DNA of 64,000 nucleotides from an uncultured archaeon (GCA_963787445.1 CAWBCT010000013.1:43096-107095), one strand, 5' to 3'; positions 49,822 to 63,848 are shown, numbered from the stretch's first letter. Numbers and translations are program-made. The notes: generated from the sequence alone by a model not told the origin.

Positions 49822-50931
49822 TCACTTGAGCGGAGGCTCGTGCGCCTTCCAGGACACTGCCGCAAGGTGGAGCAGCTGTTTTGCCTTCACTCCCCCTACC
49901 TCCCCTAGGAAGTCCTTGTAGAGCTGAGTCGCTGCCGGATTCTGTCCCGAGTCCGAGTAGGCGGCCTTGGCGCCGAGCGAGTAAAGCCCCTGCTTCCTCT
50001 TCTCTATTGTCTCCGGCGTTGATGGCGGCTGGCCCGCTCCCCCGATGCACCCTCCCCTGCAGTTCATTACCTCTATGAACTTGTACTGCTCGCGGAGCTC
50101 CCTCTCCTTCAGGACAGGCTCCGCATTCTGGATCCCGTCAATGACCAGTATCTTTATCTCCTTTCCATCTATCTCGAACTTTATCTCCCTGGTATTCTGG
50201 AATCCCCTAAGCATGTTTATCTGAGGCTCGGCGAGCGCCTTGCTGTGGCGGTTCGCGTGATATCTTAGAGTGGCCTCTGAAACCCCTCCGCTTACCCCGA
50301 ATAATCTGGCTGCTCCTGAAGAGGATCCCAGAAGCAGATCAAACTCGCTCTCCGGGCAGTCCCTCAGGTCTATCCCCTTTGCCTTGAGGAACTGCGCGAT
50401 CTCAACGGTGGTAAGCACCAGGTCGACCGCCGCCAGGTTCCCTCCAAGGAGCATCTCCTTCTTCTGGGCCTCCAGCTTCTTGACCAGGCAGGGCATTGCA
50501 GCCACAGAGTAGATGCTGCTCGGCTGAATCGACTGCTTTGCCGCGAAATAGGTCTTGATGAGCGTACCCATGGTCTCCATGGGGCTCTTCGTTGTGGCCA
50601 TATTCCTCTCCCTTAGCTCGGGGAAATCCCTCTCCAGGTCCATCACGAAGCCCGGACAGCAGGAGTTCATCAGCGGGAACGGCCCGCCCTCCGCCTGGCG
50701 CTGCTCCAGCTCCGCATCCTCCTCCATCACCACTATGTCTGCTGCAAAAGTAGTGTCAAAAACGTAATCAAACCCGAGTTTCCTGAAGGCGCCTATGATC
50801 TTATTGGTAAGCGGGGTCCCTGCCTCGTAGCCGAACAGCTCGCCCATCGCCACCCGGACCGAGGGTGCCATCTGGATGACCTTCACCACGCTCTTGTCTG
50901 CGAGCACCTTCTCTAGCTCCGCGGTGTCCAT
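49822..50931 (-). CDS. hydA: Minimal monomeric [FeFe]-hydrogenase (H-domain plus small-subunit motif)
   Basis: APSVR; L1 NSCCPGF; L2 MPCLVKKLE; L3 EVMNCRGGCIGGAGQP; C-terminal NP....LYKDFLG....KAKQLLH. Confidence 0.93.
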   Translation of the reverse strand: MDTAELEKVLADKSVVKVIQMAPSVRVAMGELFGYEAGTPLTNKIIGAFRKLGFDYVFDTTFAADIVVMEEDAELEQRQAEGGPFPLMNSCCPGFVMDLERDFPELRERNMATTKSPMETMGTLIKTYFAAKQSIQPSSIYSVAAMPCLVKKLEAQKKEMLLGGNLAAVDLVLTTVEIAQFLKAKGIDLRDCPESEFDLLLGSSSGAARLFGVSGGVSEATLRYHANRHSKALAEPQINMLRGFQNTREIKFEIDGKEIKILVIDGIQNAEPVLKERELREQYKFIEVMNCRGGCIGGAGQPPSTPETIEKRKQGLYSLGAKAAYSDSGQNPAATQLYKDFLGEVGGVKAKQLLHLAAVSWKAHEPPLK

Positions 50932-53951: not shown

Positions 53952-54143
53952 CTATTTACCCACAAACTTGTCCATAACTTGAATAGCTTTTTGTGCTTCT
54001 TCTTTTATTGTTTCAACTATCTTTTTCTGTTTGCCATTCAGTTTTCCATAGTCGCCGCGCAGAAGCAGCGCGGAAAAGCCAGCTATGCTTGCCAACGGAG
54101 CCTTCACATCATGAACAGATTTCATTTCATAACCTCTAAGCAT
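53952..54143 (-). CDS. Stand-alone HisKA (DHp) domain protein
   Basis: H-box HDVKAPLASIAGFSALL, YGKLNGKQKK; no HATPase domain. Confidence 0.65.
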   Translation of the reverse strand: MLRGYEMKSVHDVKAPLASIAGFSALLLRGDYGKLNGKQKKIVETIKEEAQKAIQVMDKFVGK

Positions 54144-55651
54144 TCAAGACTTTACAAAACCCTCTAATTTCTCCAGCACTTTGACCATCCCTTCAGTATC
54201 TTGTCCGCAATACTTCTCCAGGTGCGCTCTAGTTTCCTTTATTTCTTTGGTAGAGGCTTTCTCTCCTTCGTAAGAGCCATGAGTGATGAACAGATAAGTT
54301 AGTGATGCTTGCGACCCATTCGCAATCTCAAAGCCCTCATATGTGACTCCGGTCAGCGCCGGCAGCACGTACTTCAAGGAAGCGCTGCCTTTCTGGGCCG
54401 GGTGATAGTATGCGAAGCCCCTGAACGGGACCAATAAGTCAACCATCCTGCTTACAGTTGAATCAACCCAGCTTGCATATCCTGGAAGCTCGATTGCAAG
54501 ATTCTTGAGAACCGTTTGTTCGAAAGTCTGATTATAGACAACCACGCTCCCCTTCGTGCCAAGAGCCTTCTTGAGCTGCTTGATGAACATGGGCCTTGGA
54601 TCGTCCGTGTCCTTGGCTATGAATGAGTAGTGCTTGGGGTTTTGGCCTTTCTTCTTGATAACATGCACGGAGAACTGGAAAGGTATCTGCTGGTATGGCT
54701 TCAGGCCGTCATACAATGGGATCGCGGTGTTGTACGTCTCGAAGTCTATGAAGTAAAGGGGTACTTCAAGAGCTTCATGAAGGAGCCAATCTCTTCATGG
54801 TCTATGTGGTGGATATTGTTGAGTGTACCTTCTGCTGTATCAGTTGCTTCGCATTAAGCTTGTAATCTTTAGGGATGTCCATTATCCTGAAGCACCCCGG
54901 CATTGAACAGCTCAATGGCCTTCTTCCCGCCCCAGTAAAGGTCCAGGATGTCGGATTCCGGATGCTCCTTCCAGAATCTGTCATTGATATGGATTCCGTC
55001 CGGATCATCGTGATATTCCTCGCCTCGTGTGAATTCTGGACACTTCTTGAGCCTTATGATGTCGAATATATTCTTTATCTTCGCAGGGACGTCGGGCATC
55101 AATGCGTCTATCTCTGTTGTGACTTCTGTCCTTGCAAAGAACTCGTTCGGATTTATCTTTCCGTGCCTTACATACTCCTTGTTTATGTGCACAACAAAGC
55201 ACTTCCGTATCTTCAGCCCTGCGCTCTCGTAGCAGTATCTCTGGAACGAAATATCCTCAAGATGGTACTCTTTGACGCTTGTGGAGCTCTTTACCTCAAG
55301 TATGTCCCATTTGCCACCTGCTACAGGCAGCAGTATGTCTGCCCTGGCGTAGCACTTTCCGTTCTTATGCAAGAATCCGGCTTCAAATAGGGGCTTCTTC
55401 TTATTGAGCAGCTTCCTGGATATCTTATCGTTCTCCCTCGGGACAATCTCCTTTATGTCTATGCCGTCCTTGAACAGACTCTTCGCAAGCTCCCCGACCA
55501 TGTTGCCCTCATCGAAGCGATGTTGTGTCTGCCCATCGACTTCCGGCAGCGCGTCGGGATCGTTGAATTTGAGCCAGACCGCCTTGGCGCAGCCTAGACC
55601 AGTCACGTAGTTGGACTTTGTCAGATATCTAATTGCCTTTTGGCGTTCCAT
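54144..55651 (-). CDS. PD-(D/E)XK nuclease + DUF2779 (RNase H-like) protein, split by indels
   Basis: LTKS....GLGC.K..WL, ARADIL, EVKSSTS, D..FQ; across shifts LYFIDFET, PYQQIPFQFS, YNQTFE, SLKYVLP, YCGQDT. Confidence 0.8.
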
Positions 55652-55658
55652 ACGTGTT

Positions 55659-56484
55659 TCAACTCCTCTGCCGCCACGTTCTGGCTACTGCATTTGATAT
55701 CTTTCTTATGGCGATAAGAATATCTTTATAATAGAATACATAGGCAAAAATCAGTACGAACTCCACCAGCCCACCAAGATGCACAAGATACGAATCTGCA
55801 AAGGAGCTATTGAACCACAAGAGCCCAATATTCTCTAGCAACGATATTGAGATGAAGAACAGCATTACTGGCCATATGACTGCAAAGACCGTGAAGATGC
55901 CTTTTGATGCCCCTAGGCCTTTCGGGCTTTTGACATGGTCTAAAGAGCCCACTTTACGTATAAATGCTATTACCTGCAATTCCACGAAAAGCCCGAAGCA
56001 GATCATTGTTAACAGGCTATCAACAAAGAAGAGGGAGATTCCGCTCGGCGTTATGTGCCTTAACAATGCCTCACCAAAGAGTAGGTACTGCGATCCGAGC
56101 AGCGCAAAGAGGAAAACATAAGGCAGATGGTAAGGCTTTTTATCAGTGGTGCCTTTTAGGATTATGCTGAACAGGCTGAATAGGAACAGCACCAGCAGCG
56201 CCATCACCATCTCCTCTATCGTGGTGGTTGTTGAGCTCCATGCTGTTTGCCTTGTATTATTTATCCCTTGCATTATGATTGTCCGGTTGGCATATAGCGA
56301 TACTTTTTCCGAGTATCCATTGAATATGCTTAGTAGCTGTGGTTGAATTGTGCGGCAATGCGGTTATATTGCTGTAAGGATATGCCGAGGCATAGTAGCT
56401 ACTCGTGTTGTACATCAAGAAGCACAGGACTGCAACGATGGCAACGGACGATAGATAGAAAAGGGTCAGGCGCTTTATGCGCAT
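55659..56484 (-). CDS. Multi-pass membrane protein (two track ORFs probably joined by an indel)
   Basis: N-terminal TM MRIKRLTLFYL..., S/T-rich segment, then about 5 TMs. Confidence 0.5.
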
Positions 56485-56499
56485 TTGAGTTTCGTTAAG

Positions 56500-57123
56500 C
56501 CTAGGCCCTGCCACACGATTACCTATGGGCATATCGAAATTCGCCTCGGAAAGGATCGTATGGTGCTCGCATTGATCTTGTCCGTGATCGGAATGCGTCC
56601 GTTATCTCTCATTTCCGGAAAGAGTTTCACCATAGTGTCGTTCTTCATCAGGATTACCCCGTCGCAGAACTTCCTCAAGCCTCTCAAGGCCCTGTATGGC
56701 CTTCTCCTGTCTCAGTTTCTCCAGCGAGAACGGATAACTCAAAACGGCTACGGTTACGCCTTCTGCTCCCTCGCGATCTTTGCGATCATGGGCGTGCCCC
56801 GGTGCCCGTGCCCCCCCCAAGCCCGCGCATATGAAGACCTGTTTGGCGCCCAGGAACCGTTTCTTGAGCCTGGATAATCCTGCGCACCGGCTTTCATTCC
56901 CATGCCGGATCTCCCGCCGCTCCAAGTCCACCAAGCAGCTTCCTGCCTATAAGCATCTTCTTCGAGTCCTGCATCAAGCCTCTCAAGCCTTTGTTTGTCA
57001 GTATTTATGGCCAGAAGCCTCACCAATCCGAGTTCCTCGCCCAGTAAGAACCTATTTACCGTATTGCATCCCGCGCCGCCTACCCCTACGATTACAACTC
57101 CCTGCTAGCGTTTTATCCTTCAT
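56500..57123 (-). CDS. FtsZ/tubulin-family GTPase, N-terminal domain only (frameshifted in this sequence)
   Basis: Across indels: VIVGVGGAGCNTVNR, AINTD, IG...GGLG.GG, VFICAGLGGGTGTGG.P.IAKIARE, TVAV.SYPF..E, CDGVILMKND, DAF; 3' end approximate. Confidence 0.8.
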
Positions 57124-57127
57124 CAGA

Positions 57128-57265
57128 TCACTCCATGATCGTTCTGAAGTCCTCCCGTATGCCCTCCAGGAGCTCGTCCCTCTCCTTCGCCACCGAGTCG
57201 TGGATTCTCTTGGCTTCGACCGCGATCTGCTTGTACTCCTCTGCCTGCTCTAGTCCGTTTTCCAT
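57128..57265 (-). CDS. 45-aa helical/coiled-coil protein (not in the ORF track)
   Basis: MENGLEQAEEYKQIAVEAKRIHDSVAKERDELLEGIREDFRTIME*, with a GGTGAG RBS. Confidence 0.6.
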   Translation of the reverse strand: MENGLEQAEEYKQIAVEAKRIHDSVAKERDELLEGIREDFRTIME

Positions 57266-57278
57266 AAACTCACCAATA

Positions 57279-58706
57279 TCATGCGTACATCGAGGAGTTC
57301 TCAATGGCCTTTGCTATCGCTGCCTTGCTCTGGCCCCTCTTCCTGTACTCCGCCACGCATCTCATAAGGTCTTCAGTGCCGAGCTCCGAAAGGGCTTGGT
57401 TTCCAGTCGTAAGCTCCTCCTTGAGCCTCTGGCCGAGGCCCATCTGGATGATCTCGGAGATGTCCGCGCCCGTCATGCCATCCGTTTCTGCCGCAAGCCG
57501 GCCATAGTCCACATCTGGACCTACCTTCTTGCCAGCTGCGTGGATCTTGAATATGGCTACCCTTGCATCTTTGTCAGGCGGCGGAACGGATATTATCTTG
57601 TCGAAGCGTCCGGGGCGCAGCAGCGCATGGTCCATCCTCTCTATCGAGTTGGTGGTGCCTATCACCGTGACCTTGTCCATGCCCTCGACTCCGTCCATCT
57701 TCTGCAGCAGCACGCTGACCATCCTTACGGTCTCCTCGTGCGCGTCTTCCCTGGACCTTGCAAGGCTGTCTATCTCGTCGAAGAGTATTATCGAAGGCGC
57801 GTGCTTCTTCGCCATGTCAAAGACCATCCCTATCCTTCTTGGGCTCTCCCCGTACCAACAGGACATGACATCAGTCAGACTCACGCAGAACAGCGAGGCC
57901 TGCGCAAGGTTGGCCATCGCCTTGGCCAACAGGGTCTTGCCTGTGCCGGGAGGACCGTTCAGCAGGATGCCCCTCGGGTACCTGATCCCCCACTTCTGGA
58001 ACGACTCCGGGCTCTTCAGGCCGTGACCCAATAGCGTTAACTCTGACTTAGCTTCATCGCACCCTCCTATCTCCGCAAACGTTATTGACGGCTTCTCTAG
58101 CCCTATGTCGGTCTCAAGCCTCCTCCTTTTTGCGAGGCCTGACCTCATCCTGGGCTTTTTCAGGTGCGTGAGGAGCTCAAGGTCCAGCTCGCTGCCCGCA
58201 GTCGCGTACACCGAGTTTATGAGCCATTCGGTGAGCCTGGACACTGACTCAATGTCTGTTTTCAGCGTTTCCGGGTTTATCTTCCTCTCCCTCAGCGTGG
58301 AAACCATGAGAAGGATCCCAAGGCACGACACCCTGTAACCGTTCCCGCTCTCTGAACTCAGTTCAACCGTCTTTTTCCCAAACCTTGCGGTATAATGCGC
58401 AGGCACGGTGCCCTTCATCGACTCAAAGACCTTGGGGAACTCGTTCTCCCTTGATTCGTATTCTGCTGTAATCTTGATGTTGTAGCTCTCGCAGTCCGAT
58501 GTGATCACCTGTCCGTCCTGGAACCTCTCGCCGATCTTCGCGAGCGGTATGTCCAGCTCGCTGTCATCGATTATCCTGACCGTAAGTTCATCGTCATGGA
58601 TCCTGTAGACTCCCCTATCATCTTCAAGTGCCTTCCTGTCAGAGAGCATCTCCGCCATCCTATTATAGTCCTCCTCCGAAAACGCGTTTGTTATCCTGAA
58701 AACCAT
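57279..58706 (-). CDS. Single-ring classic-clade AAA+ ATPase (Cdc48/PAN/Vps4-like) with an unrecognised N-domain
   Basis: EIGG, GPPGTGKTLLAKA, pore loop WYGES, FDEID, SRH TN....D.ALLRPGRFD. Confidence 0.92.
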   Translation of the reverse strand: MVFRITNAFSEEDYNRMAEMLSDRKALEDDRGVYRIHDDELTVRIIDDSELDIPLAKIGERFQDGQVITSDCESYNIKITAEYESRENEFPKVFESMKGTVPAHYTARFGKKTVELSSESGNGYRVSCLGILLMVSTLRERKINPETLKTDIESVSRLTEWLINSVYATAGSELDLELLTHLKKPRMRSGLAKRRRLETDIGLEKPSITFAEIGGCDEAKSELTLLGHGLKSPESFQKWGIRYPRGILLNGPPGTGKTLLAKAMANLAQASLFCVSLTDVMSCWYGESPRRIGMVFDMAKKHAPSIILFDEIDSLARSREDAHEETVRMVSVLLQKMDGVEGMDKVTVIGTTNSIERMDHALLRPGRFDKIISVPPPDKDARVAIFKIHAAGKKVGPDVDYGRLAAETDGMTGADISEIIQMGLGQRLKEELTTGNQALSELGTEDLMRCVAEYRKRGQSKAAIAKAIENSSMYA

Positions 58707-58765
58707 CCAGACACCGTCTTTTATAGAATGCGAGCAACAGTTATTTAAATATTTCTATCAAATAG

Positions 58766-58782
58766 TATAATAGTGTATTATA
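58766..58782. promoter_or_regulatory. Palindrome between the divergent AAA and CARF promoters
   Basis: TATAATA-GTG-TATTATA; AT-rich, so weak evidence. Confidence 0.4.
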
Positions 58783-58848
58783 AGGTATAAAGATGTATTA
58801 GTCATGGAAAGCTATAAAAGCGAGAGCAGCGAGAGTAAAGCGGAGGAC

Positions 58849-59452
58849 ATGGGAAAAAAGGTACTCATAGCCACTTTGTACAGTCCGGAGCCCGTGATAC
58901 TGGCAACCACCAGGCTCGGCCCTGAAAGACTAATCCTGCTTATCGATAAGACAAGCAACAAGGAGCAGGAGGCGTCATTGAAGCTCATAGAGGACTCCCT
59001 GGGCAAAGTCATAGACGTAAAGACGGTCAAGACTGACGTCTACGACATAGTCGAGATTGCCCGGGAGTGCGTCAAGGTCATCGACCTGCAGCCGAACGAA
59101 GACCACATCTTCGTGAATATAACCTCGGGAAGGAAGACCAAGGCGATAGGGCTCCTGTTTGCTGCCTATGCAAGACATTCAAGAGTGAGCAAGATCGCGT
59201 ATAATCCTGAAGAAGATAAATCTAGCATAGTCTATCTTCCAAGGCTAAGCTTCAAGCTTACGGATAATCAGAAAGATATTCTTAGAGAAGATAGGATCGA
59301 ATAAGTTCGAGACAATTACTGAATTGGCAAAAGCCATAGATATTTCTACGGCTATGTTGTATCGTGCAATAGACGAGCTGGAGGATATGGATTTGATAAT
59401 CAGAGATCCGAAACTGGAGCTTACTGATGCAGGGAAGATTGCAAGATTATAA
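58849..59452 (+). CDS. Csa3-like CARF-wHTH transcriptional regulator (one extra base near 59284)
   Basis: VLIATL, VNITSGRK, LPRL; corrected frame gives ITELAKAIDISTAMLYRAIDELEDMDLI....ELTDAGKIARL*. Confidence 0.8.
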
Positions 59453-59465
59453 TAAAGACGTGGGA

Positions 59466-60080
59466 ATGATGAACCATTCACTAGGAGAAAAAGATTACAC
59501 TGTTTTTCTTAACTCTTTTAAAAATTCTATGTATCGCTTAGCTAAAAACAAGACGGTAATGAAAAAATTAGAACTTAGCAATAAAACACATGGTGTCTTA
59601 GCTGAGGTATACGCAGTTCTTAGGTTGCATGAAGCATTTAAGACAGAGTCTATAACTTGGAAAGGAGGACAAACTCGGAGTATAGACTTAAAGTTAGGAG
59701 ATATTGATATACAGGTAAAGAAAATAACTGGAAAAAATGATGGACGCTTTTATTGGAATTGGAAAGATACAAAATTGGAAGAAAATCCAAAAGGCAGCGG
59801 GATACACAAAACTATCTCGTATAAAACTATAAAAAAATTGAAATGCAAATTTACATATCCATACTTATTCGTTTATATGGAAAATCTGAATAAACCCATC
59901 TTCTTATGTTTTTCAAAAGAAGAGATGCTAAGACTTTATGGAAAAACGATAAAATCTCATAACGCCTGATAAGGAAACCGAGAGAAAGAGGTGAAGGGCA
60001 AAAAAAACCTTAGTACTCCTCGTTTTTATCTGAAAGAAAGTGGACATAGAGACAAGTTTGATAAATTGAAACAAACATGA
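59466..60080 (+). CDS. Putative PD-(D/E)XK endonuclease, AT-rich
   Basis: G.LAE...SIDL...IQVK; probable indel near 59965, 3' end uncertain. Confidence 0.55.
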
Positions 60081-60092
60081 CATAGTCTTGGA

Positions 60093-61466
60093 TTACATAA
60101 GGAGTTGTTCTTGTATATTTTCTATAGTACCTCTATTTTGGAAGGTACATAAGATAGCTTCTCTAAATCCAGAGAACTCGTAAAATTCCTCCAACTTTAA
60201 GGTTAACAGTTCCAATAACTGACTCGCCGTAATAAGAACGACATTGTTAACTTTTGATTCCCTCTCTATATACTTTAGTTTTGAGTCTAATATGTTCTTG
60301 AAAAAGCTAGAGAGTAATGGCGTAATAAATAGTATCCATTCCTTCTTTGTTTAATTCATTTTTATATGTTTCTTGATATACTCGATTATAGAACGCTTTC
60401 ATCAGCTGACAAAATTATATCCATCCCCTCTACATTTACAATCGTACATTACTGCATAATGCTCGGACCTACACTTCGCTATACCATCTTATCTCTTTTG
60501 CCAGCACCGAGTTTCGTAATCTCGTATCCTAACATTTTAAACAGTATTTCGGGCTCTCTCTTCAAAGATGTAGTCTAGTTCCATATCTGCCTTTTTCTTA
60601 TACTTCATTTGAGTGGCAGATCATTTTTGCTATCTAGGACGGAAGTCAGATAGTATTGGCGGTATATATTCATCTACTGAATATGGATTAATTTTCTCCA
60701 GACAATACTGTAGTCTTACTTTTACCATTTTCTTGTGTATCTTCACCTTCTGCCTTTCTTACAAGTATCTTCTTCATTTATAATAGTACCAGATAACATG
60801 TTCCACATACCATAAATCTACAGACGTACCTAATGTTTTACTAAATAATGTTTCGAGCTCTTTATTGATATTGTAAAAGACAGCGTAATAGTCCTCGGGG
60901 CTTAGACCTTCAGGTAGAAATCCCCAACTGTTTAAAAGATGTTTCAGCTGAGTGGTATAATATTGGGAACTCTTTACTGTTTTGTATCTGCCAGAAATAA
61001 CTAAGAAAGTATAATGATGATTTTGCCCTAGGATTTGCTGCTTTAGGACCTGATGGATTTTTAAGACTCATTATGAACTGAACAAATCTTTTAATTTTTT
61101 CTTTAGAGTAATGTTATTTGGTAATTTCAGATATTCGATAAGGACGAGTCTTAATTTGTCCTTATCGTTGGCAGAGTTATAAATCATGTTGAAGAAACAT
61201 CTGGCCACTAATTCCCTTAAAGCCCCACAATCTATTCTTTTTGTTTATGCTGTCAATACATGTGTTTTAAATGTGGCTAAATCTGTTGTTCCAGAGAAAA
61301 GCCCATTTAGTTCTGCTTTGATATTGCCTATAACTTTTAGTCTTCTAGCATCTAAATCTTTATAGGAACCCATTTTATCTGATTCTACTAGAAAGACTTG
61401 TTCGCCATTTTTCTTAAATGTTTTTAACATTTCAGCTGAAGTTAATTGATTCTGTGAAAGTTCCAT
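60093..61466 (-). CDS. Restriction endonuclease-like protein (C-terminal FokI/Mrr-type catalytic domain), multiple indels
   Basis: Across shifts: NRLWGFKGISGQMFFNM, IPPILSD, FEE....LFKMLGYEI..LG, DGIA....YAVMYDCK. Confidence 0.6.
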
Positions 61467-61556
61467 AAATGACACTTGTTTCTAACTAAAACAGTGCACA
61501 TAAAGATATTTATATTTGTACGAACCCAGACAACGAGATGGCCAAAGAAGTATAAG

Positions 61557-61645
61557 ACTCCACACTCCTTACCCCTTCCCTTCCTTTTGGGAGTGGAGTG
61601 TCCCTTTGCTCTCGGGGAAGAGGCCGCTTGGACATTCTCCACTCC
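61557..61645. repeat. Cluster of CTCCACTCC-type direct/inverted repeats
   Basis: GGAGTGGAGTGTCC (61590-61603) pairs with GGACATTCTCCACTCC (61630-61645) or with ACTCCACACTCC (61557-61568). Confidence 0.6.
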
Positions 61646-61716
61646 GTTTCGCAGGTTGGGTGGATACTTTTCTAGTATTCTGTTAGTTTATTCCCGTGCT
61701 TTGTTTGTGTCCTTTT

Positions 61717-63848
61717 TCATAGTGTTATGCACTCAACGCTGTCGCTTATGAGGTGCTTCATCTCATCTCTCACCTTTTGGTTGTTTGTGACCAGCACTAA
61801 CTCTGCATTGAATCGCTTTGCCCTTTCCTTGCACTTCTCTATCTCCTCTGTTATGGCAGTTGGTCTGCATCTCATAGGCCCTGACCTTCTTTTCATCCCA
61901 GAGATACTTGAACTTTCCACCTCGCACCTCCTACATCGAATGCGTCCTGCTGCGCAAGAACGAAGGCGAAGTTGCCTTTTTCTTGGATTGTTTGGATTAT
62001 CTTGGTCATCATCTCCGTGTGCTCTGCGCTTCCTGCGTTAGCCTTTTGCCTTTCCACGAGCTTGTCCGGATTCGATTACCTCCCTGAACTTTGCGATGAA
62101 CGCGTTGTTCTGGTCTATGTATCCGGCATTCTTCGCGCGCTCGAGCAGTGACGGCTTGCTCTTTGTTCCGTACATTGTGGTAGGGCTGGTTATCCATCCC
62201 TTTTCCCTCAGCATCTGGTATGCGCCTTGCGGCGTTCCTGCCTTCTGGAGCGCGTAAGGAAGCGGTAGAGCGTAAGCTGAAGGGGGCTCTATGCCTTCCT
62301 TTCTCAGGAGCTCCATAATCCCTTGGCCTTGATGTGCCGTTCTCTGCCATTCTTTGAGCTTCCTATCTCCAGCTTTTGGGCTTTTTGCAAGGAGACGTGT
62401 AACTCTCTTCATCGCTCAGGTTGTCCATCTCCACGTATGCGGAGTGGGCCCTTCCCTTCTGGAGGGCGTGCTCGTCAAGAACGAAGCAGTGGCCCACGGG
62501 CATGCGCCTCATTATCTCTTTCTCTATGTCCGAGAGGTGCAGGATCTTGTGTATCCTCACCGCGTCTTCGGGCGCATGATTCGGATGGACGATCTTGACT
62601 GACGTGTTGGCCACCACCGCATCCGGAAGATCGGCAAGCATCTGGGTTGCTATTATAAGACCGAACCCGTACTTCCGGCCCTCCCTCACTATCTTTGCGA
62701 TGGGGTTTCCCTTCCGTATTTCGTTTTATGGCCTTGTACGCATCGTCCAGGGCTATAAGCAGCTTCACTTCTCCCTCGTCCCTGAACTCCTCTGTTATCC
62801 TTTGAAGCATTGAGTAGGTCACTAGGTCCTTCTCTGTTTCAGTGAGCCCCTCGAGCTCCACCACGTTGCAGGCCTTTTCCATAGTTCTCCCAGAAGCCCT
62901 TGGTTCCTCACCAAACACCTCAAACGTCTGCCGCAGCTTGTTCGCTATGTACTGGTTCTGCACCTTTATGTCCCTGAACTTCTCCAGCTACTATGCTCTC
63001 CCCGACCTTGTCGTAGAGCATCTGGATCGTGGGCTCAAGGCCTCTGGTCGTAGAGCTCAACCAGCAGCTCCCTAACCTTCTGGGCCTGAAGGTTCGTTCA
63101 GGTCCAAGTGAGAATTGTAGGGTTTCCGCCGCGATTCCACTCCTCCTATCGCCGCTCATGCCTCTGAGCAGTAGGGGATTCACCTTAAGGTTCCTTGGGA
63201 CGTTCCAGATTGGTCGCCTCCCCGAGCTTCTTGTAGCTGCCGGACCAGTCTATTATGAGGAAGGGTATTTCATATTTCGCATATCCCCTGGCCAGAGAGC
63301 CCTCATGGTGGTGGACTTGCCTCTCCGGTCTTGCCCACTATCATCATATGTGGGCTCGGCTCGCTCTTTAGGGACACATCGTAAACTCCTTTCGAACCGC
63401 CATAGGCTATGGCCCTTGCTGCCCTTTCCCCGTTCGCGTCAAGGAACCTATCTTCCTTTCCAGCCGGATCGTGTATTCATAGCCTATTGCTATGCCATTA
63501 TGCCTTGACTTCTTCATCCTGTCCTTGCGCTTCGCGATTTCCCTCCAGAGCAGGAAGCATACGCAGGCGCTAAAAAACAGGGCTAGGGCGATGTTTTCTG
63601 GTCAATGCCCAGAAAAGTATATTGAGGAATTGAAAAGGCACAGAATGATAAACACGAGCCATCCCAACGCATTTTCGTATATCGGCACACGCTTCCTTCC
63701 CTTTTTCACGTACTTGAAGAACTCATCCACTATCTTATTCGTGCTCTTTATCGCCTTCTTTCCTATTGCGGCTCGCCGCTATGCCTACTGCAAGGACTAT
63801 CGCGAAGATGTAGGCGACAGCGAAGCCAGCAAACTGTGCGATATCCAT
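61717..63848 (-). CDS. Membrane-anchored VirD4/TraG/HerA-like ATPase with C-terminal extension, heavily frameshifted
   Basis: About 3 N-terminal TMs, GIAIG, PHMMIVGKTG.GKSTT, FLIIDWSGSY, LLIALDDAY, REGRKYGFGLIIATQ. Confidence 0.75.

Follow-up and report, generated by a model that had tools for sequence, protein, structure and literature searches.

The 64,000-nucleotide stretch of archaeal DNA analyzed here (G000:C13:43096-107095, reaching the end of its contig and hereafter called the window) carries a gene for a short FtsZ, named sFtsZ, that keeps the N-terminal GTP-binding domain and ends in or just past helix H7. Work on FtsZ has treated it as a protein of two domains, the GTPase site of a subunit being activated by the C-domain of the preceding one. 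sFtsZ is a real, monophyletic and fast-evolving family derived from one FtsZ paralogue of the Micrarchaeota, and it represents a family of new architecture among FtsZ proteins, found in a gene context that is likewise new. In the window its gene belongs to an operon of five products, which includes an AAA+ ATPase and is divergent from a regulator with a CARF domain and a winged helix-turn-helix (CARF-wHTH). We are highly confident that this anatomy and the sFtsZ family are correct. Family and context are solid; what is said below about function is predicted from sequence. The host genome (1.05 Mb in 19 contigs, 82% complete) belongs to the Micrarchaeota (DPANN), and the locus is a rare accessory operon. 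A first, sequence-only reading of this DNA had guessed a DPANN origin, and rightly so: the related locus L020 is from Micrarchaeota, and its genome falls in the same order as that of the window.

On the minus strand, from 57123 to 56523, the coding sequence of an FtsZ N-domain is spread over three frames; the open reading frame (ORF) track had missed it, as the first reading pointed out. Read across these frames, the motifs VGVGGAGCN, AINTD, GLGAAGDP, AGLGG/GGGTGTGA, YPFSLE and KND follow each other in the order that reading expected for FtsZ. The Pfam Tubulin family (PF00091) matches three fragments with internal stops, scoring 43.7 bits once they are joined. Frame changes were counted by a purpose-written, frameshift-aware local alignment of protein versus DNA. 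Depending on the guide protein and the penalty, 6-8 changes are needed, with 0 in-frame stops, and two more are likely near 56560-56612 (paths guided by proteins P0052 and P0062), which makes about 8-10 indels in total. The first reading had counted at least 8 single-base indels; its placement of several of them in G runs is not confirmed: the sole homopolymer of 5 or more bases in the gene is G8 at 56811-56818, and most breaks are outside homopolymers. The corrected protein is identical at 92 of 175 positions to the Z1-type paralogue of its own genome, at 84 of 171 to P0007 and at 102 of 175 to P0059 (207 aa), its closest intact relative. It had been proposed that the gene ends after about 200 codons. 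This is the case, and since its TAG (56525-56523) overlaps the ATG of the following membrane-protein gene (56532) by 10 nt, there is no space for a C-domain. In agreement, tblastn with the four full-length FtsZ proteins of the same genome gave no C-domain match in 55600-57400, the matches ending at residue ~238 (helix H7). The four proteins are encoded by intact FtsZ genes (367-403 codons) on contig C5. Each of the Micrarchaeota genomes G000 (that of the window), G126 and G357, of ~1 Mb each, has four full-length paralogues, two of them adjacent (loci L001-L004 and L174-L181).

That the short form is not peculiar to the window follows from its relatives. In L020 the frame runs through 213 codons without a break (P0007, 207 aa) and stops at the same point as the window gene, and a word-indexed search gave P0008 (208 aa), 74% identical to P0007. 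In precomputed Pfam annotation both carry PF00091 only, and PF12327 (FtsZ_C) is present in 32 of 34 other hits, the two exceptions (P0027 and P0041) looking frameshifted or partial. An exhaustive search of 1.84 billion representatives returned 10849 hits, and lengths were examined in the best 150. Twenty proteins among these have at most 260 aa. Four (P0052, P0055, P0059 and P0062) were read as true short forms, since they begin with M, have no T7 motif and extend 20-45 residues past the 'AF' of H7; the tails of the other 16 led us to regard them as parts of canonical genes that are frameshifted or cut at a contig end. Contig edges do not explain the short length, because P0052 lies inside a contig of 151507 bp and P0055 is found on 11 contigs. 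With six intact short forms of 203-229 aa, the possibility that the homologues are all full-length can be set aside. The GTP-binding loop motifs T1-T6 are kept in all six. The GGGTG(T/S)G signature is present in four, and degenerate in P0055 (GGGIGTG) and P0062 (GGGTSTC). The T7 motif, G-x-hydrophobic-N-x-D-F-x-D, completes the GTPase site of the neighbouring subunit in FtsZ. A pattern search found no such loop in P0052, P0055, P0059 and P0062, nor was one seen in P0007 and P0008. P0007 aligns to residues 39-223 of the 364 of Methanocaldococcus jannaschii FtsZ (E 3e-33), and in neither the window nor L020 did tblastn give a C-domain match past FtsZ residue ~238.

N-domain columns of 34 rows were used for a maximum-likelihood tree. 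All seven short rows fall into a single clade in it (support 96/93), and within this clade the window joins P0059 at 99/96. The short clade groups with the Z1-type paralogues of G000, G126 and G357 and with P0009 (98/99). Since the short rows are monophyletic beside the Z1-type, the C-terminal half was lost once, from one of the four paralogues; since then the short form has been retained and has diverged. End branches of the short forms reach 0.14-1.0 changes per column versus 0.08-0.3 for the canonical Micrarchaeota paralogues. The row for the window was read along a path guided by its own Z1 and is thus biased towards Z1, yet it joins P0059. P0036 and P0026 (long branches), two duplicate rows truncated at locus ends, and a reading of the window guided by P0007 were omitted. 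A first tree, with P0007 and P0008 as the sole short forms, left the window copy unplaced among long branches and has been superseded. When 401 genomes of the phylum were searched with an sFtsZ profile, G126 alone stood out among the best 150 of 1301 matches (329 bits, a 213-aa frame); the next ones are canonical (at most 254 bits), and diverged short forms could be hidden beyond these 150. G126 has four long FtsZ and sFtsZ, and G357 four long FtsZ and no sFtsZ. The same profile matched 400 genomes at E 1e-48 or better, most of them with 2-4 matches. No close sFtsZ was found on viral contigs, where four loci match at 27-33% identity. Another FtsZ architecture met in these searches is that of P0051, P0053 and P0054 (744-840 aa), which are tandem fusions of two complete FtsZ units with a low-complexity linker.

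The operon and its surroundings comprise the following features, in window coordinates.

56523..57123, minus strand: sFtsZ, N-terminal GTP-binding domain, ~200 aa, broken in the assembly (PF00091, frameshift-aware alignment)
57128..57265, minus strand: 45-aa helical ORF (position, GGTGA upstream, counterpart in L100)
57279..58706, minus strand: single-ring classic AAA+ ATPase, 475 aa, intact (PF00004, 1.5e-39)
58707..58848, no strand: divergent AT-rich intergenic region (TATA-like boxes, sequence inspection)
58849..59452, plus strand: CARF-wHTH regulator, Csa3-like, ~200 aa (Pfam, PADLOC, homologue alignment)
59427..59969, plus strand: 180-aa ORF overlapping the 3' end of the CARF-wHTH gene (tblastn to L103)
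55659..56532, minus strand: membrane protein, ~290 aa, ~6 hydrophobic helices (hydropathy, L020 homologue)
54144..55651, minus strand: DUF2779 / PD-(D/E)XK-like nuclease gene (PF11074, 1e-35, in the 3' ORF)
53952..54143, minus strand: 63-aa ORF with a HisKA (dimerization and histidine phosphotransfer, DHp) domain only (PF00512, 1.2e-8)

On the minus strand the order is AAA+, 45-aa helix, sFtsZ, membrane protein and nuclease-like gene, with the CARF-wHTH gene divergent on the plus strand. The tight spacing and the ribosome-binding sites claimed before are there: the AAA+ stop is followed after 13 nt by the 45-aa ORF and this after 4 nt by the sFtsZ ATG at 57123, the DUF2779-like gene starts 7 nt past the membrane-gene stop with the 63-aa ORF immediately behind, and GGTGA/GGAG boxes resembling ribosome-binding sites occur within the operon. 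The module had been delimited as 56500-59452. It is real, and its extent was incomplete, as the operon continues past 56500 down to ~53952. The ~140-bp AT-rich spacer at 58707-58848, which has two short inverted repeats only, presumably holds the promoters and an operator.

The frame breaks raise the question whether the sFtsZ gene of the window is functional. Contigs from four of five public sequencing runs that share words with 55600-59500 were aligned to the window. Nine contig pieces from runs X1-X3 (records 4, 5, 7, 8, 11, 12, 19, 20 and 23) match the AAA+ gene with 0-1 differences and no gap, and because of these near-exact matches the organism or a near-identical one must have been present in the runs. 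Ten other pieces of 35-54 bases, at ~57748-57978, continue into unlike sequence and come from AAA genes of other organisms. In the sFtsZ and small-ORF stretch (56811-57246), five pieces aligned over most of their length (records 1, 2, 10, 17 and 18), all with 3-13 substitutions and 2-6 gap letters relative to the window; of record 3, merely 39 bases of a 167-base contig aligned, with 5 differences and no gap. These are the listed pieces, and nine more exist beyond them. When the contig indels are applied, one frame is open from the ATG at 57123 to 56816 (MK..VIVGVGGAGCN.. through ..KQVFICAGL). In 56811-56954 the contig differences give the single frame LIGRKLLGGLGAGGDPAMGMKAGAQDYSRLKKRFLGAKQVFICAGLGG, and from the start codon the open frame reads MKGKTASREIVIVGVGGAGCNTVSRF... 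in X2 and MKDKNDGIVIVGVGGAGCNTVNRF in X1. X3 has a 92-codon frame, 57095-56816, with a 17-base bridge given as a loose end. Although X1 and X2/X3 represent distinct alleles upstream, in 56811-56954 they share their states in contrast to the window, whose private changes there are 2 substitutions and 2 one-base deletions. One of these substitutions turns the canonical GAGGDP into GAAGDP. Such an indel-rich, clustered and allele-private pattern argues for a thin long-read consensus in strain-variable DNA, not for decay. The breaks are thus probably consensus errors of the assembly in strain-variable stretches. They are present in the assembly, as first reported, and absent from the contigs of the public runs over 57123-56816, so that the frameshifts that would have marked a pseudogene do not persist where the gene is covered. 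The first reading had overlooked that neighbouring genes are also broken, namely the CARF-wHTH gene (1 frame change), the membrane gene (1) and the DUF2779-like gene (at least 3). A scan of ORF coverage as a test of assembly quality was uninformative, spurious antisense ORFs filling the gaps at 52% GC. As to expression, no RNA data set was listed among those matching the stretch. For the AAA+ protein, the database copy P0001, on a contig of 3753 bp, is identical to the window translation at 474 of 475 residues, which points to a second assembly of a near-identical strain.

Alternatively, the locus could be a decaying remnant with real frameshifts, in which sFtsZ, membrane, CARF-wHTH and DUF2779-like genes are pseudogenes and the AAA+ gene alone is intact. 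At least 13 frame changes in four neighbouring genes of the assembly speak for it, as do the position of most breaks outside homopolymers, unlike usual homopolymer error, and the location of the locus 5-10 kb from the contig end, beside a low-GC, ORF-poor stretch. The contig evidence also has its limits. None is identical to the window over sFtsZ, and no read of the window's own haplotype was seen; the sFtsZ contigs differ from the window by 3-8% and could represent sister strains with an intact gene, the window copy being decayed. No contig covers 56386-56778 or 59268-59500, and the bin 56255-56385 holds one 40-base partial piece stopping at 56214. The breaks in the 3' part of sFtsZ and in the membrane and CARF genes being uncovered, the contig evidence on the breaks is confined to the 5' half of sFtsZ. 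The runs are from two studies, and the sFtsZ pieces all come from one, maybe the source sample, with the library type unrecorded. Against decay, every break covered by contigs is absent from them, in two distinct alleles, and the same runs match the AAA+ gene exactly, showing the organism to be present. No in-frame stop interrupts the corrected path of ~175 codons, indels are at least as numerous as substitutions, which is a profile of sequencing error, and the breaks cluster where strains differ. Their distribution is very uneven, with 0 in the 1.43-kb AAA+ gene versus about 8-10 in 0.6 kb, and the CARF gene is under purifying selection between strains (see below). We consider decay unlikely and retain consensus errors as the explanation of the breaks. 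Frameshift clusters in metagenome-assembled genomes can hide real genes where strains vary, and pseudogene calls need read-level checks.

The AAA+ protein (475 aa) has one PF00004 domain (1.5e-39, 130 of 131 positions) behind a family-specific, presumably substrate-selecting N-domain of ~200 residues, and aligns with P0002 at 295 of 475 identical positions with 0 frameshifts. Its assignment to the classic clade in the first reading is borne out by PF00004 together with the Walker A and Walker B motifs and the second region of homology. Six members conserve GPPGTGKT (except for variation at positions two and three), IILFDEID and RPGRFD; the arginine-finger region and an aromatic pore loop, CWYGESP (C-W/Y-Y-G-E-S-P), are conserved across members. 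The best PDB matches are VAT and Cdc48 D2. The other rows among the best 60 are Cdc48/p97, a chain titled 'vesicle-fusing ATPase', AFG2, NVL, Rix7 and FtsH; katanin, spastin and Vps4 are not among these 60, which form a similarity ranking and not a tree. Pfam gave neither MIT nor Vps4_C on the protein, nor a second AAA ring, nor CDC48_N or another family on residues 1-200. Of the six listed members, five have the C-terminus MYA and the sixth RYA; the proteins of loci L102 and L103 end in TYR and MYR, and the Cdc48 of the own genome (723 aa) ends in ...SMYR. Genes for the 20S alpha and beta subunits are present in the genome. Cdc48 and AMA, which bear the hydrophobic-tyrosine-X (HbYX) motif, act as archaeal proteasomal ATPases (PMC3493965). 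Because of the kinship with D2 and the HbYX-type tail, an unfoldase feeding the proteasome is preferred over a severer of katanin/spastin type, which weakens the polymer remodeller of the first reading. Whether the AAA+ docks on the 20S proteasome, as its sequence suggests, appears to us evenly balanced. On the negative side, the HbYX assignment depends on three residues. An AlphaFold2 model of the N-domain from 6 sequences has a mean pLDDT (the predicted local confidence) of 56, below 50 for residues 1-72, and with this poor model Foldseek gave no PDB match at E 0.001 or better. The N-domain is rare. It had no usable match in the ESM Atlas and 6 members in 5.8 billion clusters, and full-length loci were found in 1 of 185579 species genomes, at 4 metagenome loci and in 3 of 401 phylum genomes, that of the window included. 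In 40 close relatives only the AAA domain was matched, with no match starting before residue 167 (best 150 of 200), and no viral contig carries the N-domain, 66 viral loci matching the AAA domain alone.

In the assembly, one frame change near 59281-59287 divides the gene of the regulator into two ORFs (58804-59304 and 59324-59452); its likely start is the ATG at 58849. The first ORF matches the Pfam families HFX_2341_N (6.9e-13), CARF_Card1 (2e-7) and Csa3_N, the second a MarR-type HTH (1.3e-3). With 1 frameshift the sequence aligns end to end with intact homologues of 198-206 aa from L020, L100 and L103, and the L020 homologue matches the PADLOC model CARF3--CARF over its full length (E 7.5e-51), the Csa3 model matching as well. 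A Csa3-like CARF-wHTH divergent from the operon had been recognized from the start. For the two contigs of run X2 that cover this gene, 14 of the 16 substitutions listed are synonymous (23 letters differ in all, 7 of them outside the listing), and the gene is thus under purifying selection between strains. Nothing relevant on HFX_2341 was found in the literature. The overlapping 180-aa ORF (59427-59969) has no Pfam or PADLOC match; tblastn relates it to the edge of L103 (38% over 63 aa, 2.75e-8).

Conservation of the neighbourhood was assessed at seven AAA+ loci: the window, L020, L100, L101, L102, L103 and L173. The window and L020 share CARF-wHTH, AAA+, membrane protein and sFtsZ, the last two being swapped in order, and the CARF gene of L020 lies 3.6 kb upstream, behind a UvrD-like helicase-nuclease. 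L100 has CARF-wHTH, AAA+ and the small helical ORF before the contig ends; no convincing FtsZ start was found in its last 167 bases. At L101 the AAA+ gene is followed by a 190-aa ORF (L101:2149-2721, plus strand), which we take, by eye, to resemble a stand-alone beta-barrel domain of Cdc48-N type, and by a relative of a 140-aa ORF of L020. L102 (2320-3840) and L173 (1378-2880), both on the plus strand, have after the AAA+ gene, where the small ORF, sFtsZ and membrane protein would be expected, a second AAA+ with an N-terminal tetratricopeptide repeat (TPR) region. L103 carries CARF-wHTH, AAA+, an 82-aa ORF, a nuclease-like ORF and an integrase, and is the only locus where an integrase adjoins the module. 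CARF and AAA+ genes form the conserved core, since they adjoin each other at 4 loci and lie close together at a fifth. Of the 5 loci with at least 2.8 kb of downstream flank, 2 have sFtsZ and the membrane protein, which are one of several cargo sets. The neighbourhood is thus conserved in that it recurs in L020 and that the CARF/AAA+ pair recurs in three further loci; the four-gene set is not fixed.

How could such a system work? The explanation that we favour, tentatively and with somewhat less than even confidence, is a CARF-controlled operon in which sFtsZ caps filaments and the AAA+ with the proteasome reverses the effect. A ligand bound by the CARF domain would switch the operon on. sFtsZ would bind GTP and dock by its intact 'top' face on the growing, T7-exposing end of the cellular FtsZ filaments. 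Having no 'bottom' face, it would block further growth, as do bottom-face FtsZ mutants or the 40-residue MciZ, and this block would arrest or retune division. The membrane protein might place or anchor sFtsZ. The AAA+, docking on 20S through its HbYX tail, would unfold parts of the system, or capped FtsZ, and pass them on for degradation, so that the arrest could be undone.

Capping itself, predicted from the sequence, from a structure model and by analogy, is plausible, though less likely than not. Because the top face is kept and the bottom face is absent, sFtsZ should add to the growing end and terminate it. PMC8936486 describes FtsZ filaments as growing at the bottom end, which exposes T7, with monomers joining through a GTP-bound, pre-organized top face; mutants in the bottom interface, in contrast to those in the top interface, are toxic and stop division, and MciZ caps filaments. 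When P0007 was folded together with an own-genome FtsZ1-type paralogue and GTP, the complex scored 0.58 (0.59, 0.56 and 0.58), the best of 3 controls 0.00, for a verdict of weak support. At least 93% of contacts are shared between the runs, and the pLDDT of the partner is at least 87. In the calibration, 58 of 80 solved complexes passed the mark, as did 2 of 110 mismatched pairs, and passes with scores of at most 0.60 comprised 7 of the 80 solved complexes and both mismatches. The capping proposed in the first reading thus agrees with FtsZ polarity and has this weak support from folding, and stays a prediction. Several points count against it and against the wider explanation. The polarity data of PMC8936486 are bacterial. 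The complex score is weak, and passes of this kind are wrong in most cases in which the complex was not already likely. FtsZ-FtsZ interfaces have been solved, so the pass may reflect structures that the predictor had learned, and no interface was returned; the fold was run with custom alignments and with GTP, unlike the calibration. As for a signal, no Csm1-type Cas10 above the cut-off and no SMODS cyclase were found in the 82%-complete genome, Cmr2-type Cas10 being unsearched. Finally, L102, L103 and L173, with 2.8-6.1 kb of downstream flank, carry other genes and not sFtsZ; since it is absent in 3 of the 5 flanked loci, the AAA+ need not act on FtsZ.

This variable cargo could also mean that sFtsZ works away from FtsZ filaments, as a GTP-binding switch or partner of the membrane protein (in membrane remodelling, control of transport or sensing), CARF and AAA+ being a separate regulator-effector core with sFtsZ as one of several cargo sets. 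At both loci sFtsZ is accompanied by the membrane protein despite the swapped order, and the two genes are translationally coupled in the window, while the AAA+ is found with other cargo (the TPR-AAA+ in L102 and L173, other small ORFs in L101 and L103). The long sFtsZ branches (0.14-1.0) suggest that its surfaces may have drifted from FtsZ contacts, and the complex score is weak. However, the loops of the nucleotide face, through which subunits also contact each other in the filament, are conserved in six diverged members, the fold with the FtsZ1-type partner reached 0.58 versus 0.00 for controls, and the membrane protein yields no known family or fold that would suggest another role. A switch of this kind is to our mind rather unlikely. 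In a further scheme, sFtsZ would act as adaptor or decoy and deliver FtsZ, or itself, to the AAA+ and 20S, so that division would be controlled by regulated degradation and not by capping. The translocating pore loop and HbYX-type tail of the AAA+, the presence of the 20S genes and the occurrence of AAA+ and sFtsZ in one operon in two genomes are compatible with it. There is, however, no sign that the N-domain of the AAA+ binds sFtsZ or FtsZ, and this domain is conserved also in loci that have no sFtsZ. We regard the adaptor scheme as very unlikely. Capping by sFtsZ with reversal through the AAA+ remains our tentative choice.

The other proteins of the operon say little about function. The 45-aa ORF has a counterpart in the corresponding place of L100, with 41% identity over 44 aa (pairwise E 2e-8), and no Pfam match. 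With 1 frameshift, the membrane protein is identical at 129 of 251 positions to an intact L020 protein of 267 aa; its frame change in the assembly is at 56337. It has 8 homologues of 237-297 aa, none of them named, no Pfam or PADLOC family, a best ESM Atlas score of 0.87 to unnamed clusters, and a structure model with pLDDT 52. In the DUF2779-like gene, the frame changes (at least 3) fall within 54716-54869, a second indel cluster resembling that of sFtsZ, and the 5' ORF has a weak Cas4 match. The 63-aa ORF (53952-54143, minus strand) is a HisKA domain alone, with the H-box present. Elsewhere in the window, a gene resembling a [FeFe]-hydrogenase large subunit lies at 49822-50931 on the minus strand (PF02906, 7e-76, with a small-subunit motif). 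In 60000-62000, between the module and the contig end, the GC content is 36.5% versus ~52% elsewhere and long ORFs are nearly absent; this may be foreign or non-coding DNA. No tRNA was found in 40000-64000, where one was looked for as an integration site.

Neither a paper on an FtsZ reduced to its N-domain nor one on a CARF/AAA+/FtsZ module was found in the accessible literature, though the additional files of PMC2875224 or CARF catalogues might list such genes; the gene combination, which had seemed unfamiliar at first sight, thus matches no described module that we could find. A family reduced to the nucleotide-binding half is a natural tool for the study of filament polarity, capping and treadmilling in archaea, and sFtsZ would add a new kind of division regulator. 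Its link with a CARF protein and a Cdc48-like AAA+ suggests that signal-controlled proteolysis is joined with division control in the DPANN accessory genome. The cell biology of DPANN is almost unknown. On a bolder and unlikely view, sFtsZ would be a natural end-capper that mobile islands of DPANN deploy under CARF control to stop division on demand, a dedicated, proteasome-docking unfoldase of Cdc48 descent clearing the block. Such a stop would serve dormancy during infection or stress, or keeping step with a host. It would then be the first effector of division arrest to be linked with CARF signalling, and the first case of an FtsZ paralogue turned inhibitor by the loss of half its core.

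Each component of the locus can be set beside known systems. The regulator of the window shares with Csa3-type regulators a Rossmann-like CARF domain and a C-terminal winged helix, and differs from them in that it is not beside CRISPR-cas genes. The AAA domain is 40-46% identical to D2 of Cdc48-type ATPases in related genomes and has the aromatic pore loop and the hydrophobic-Tyr-X tail of Cdc48/VAT; unlike these, the protein has one ring, not two, and no N-domain of Cdc48 type (double-psi-barrel). sFtsZ resembles M. jannaschii FtsZ (PDB 1FSZ/1W5A) in its N-terminal nucleotide-binding domain, its T1-T6 motifs and its Z1-type ancestry, and differs in ending in or just past H7, without the T7 loop, the GTPase-activating C-domain and the C-terminal tail. 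In contrast to archaeal FtsZ1-type proteins, it lies in an accessory operon rather than a division locus, on long branches. A good top face without a usable bottom face would stop a growing end, as bottom-face FtsZ mutants and MciZ do (PMC8936486). Those cappers are laboratory mutants of full length or a peptide unrelated to FtsZ; sFtsZ is a natural truncated paralogue, known from sequence. Another parallel is FtsZ1 of Agrobacterium tumefaciens (Rhizobiaceae/Phyllobacteraceae), an extra FtsZ copy shortened C-terminally whose over-expression inhibits division (10.1101/2025.09.29.679267). The Rhizobiaceae paralogues nevertheless keep the whole GTPase domain and a short linker and lose linker and tail motifs, whereas sFtsZ loses half of the globular core. 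Finally, FtsZl1 (Makarova and Koonin 2010, PMC2875224) is likewise an FtsZ-like N-domain without recognizable C-domain, in a multi-gene, membrane-linked neighbourhood. As described there, FtsZl1 has a long coiled coil and an alpha-helical C-domain, is without T6-H7 and lies beside vWA, GTPase and OmpA genes. sFtsZ (~207 aa) retains T6 and the beginning of H7, and its place in the tree is within canonical archaeal FtsZ.

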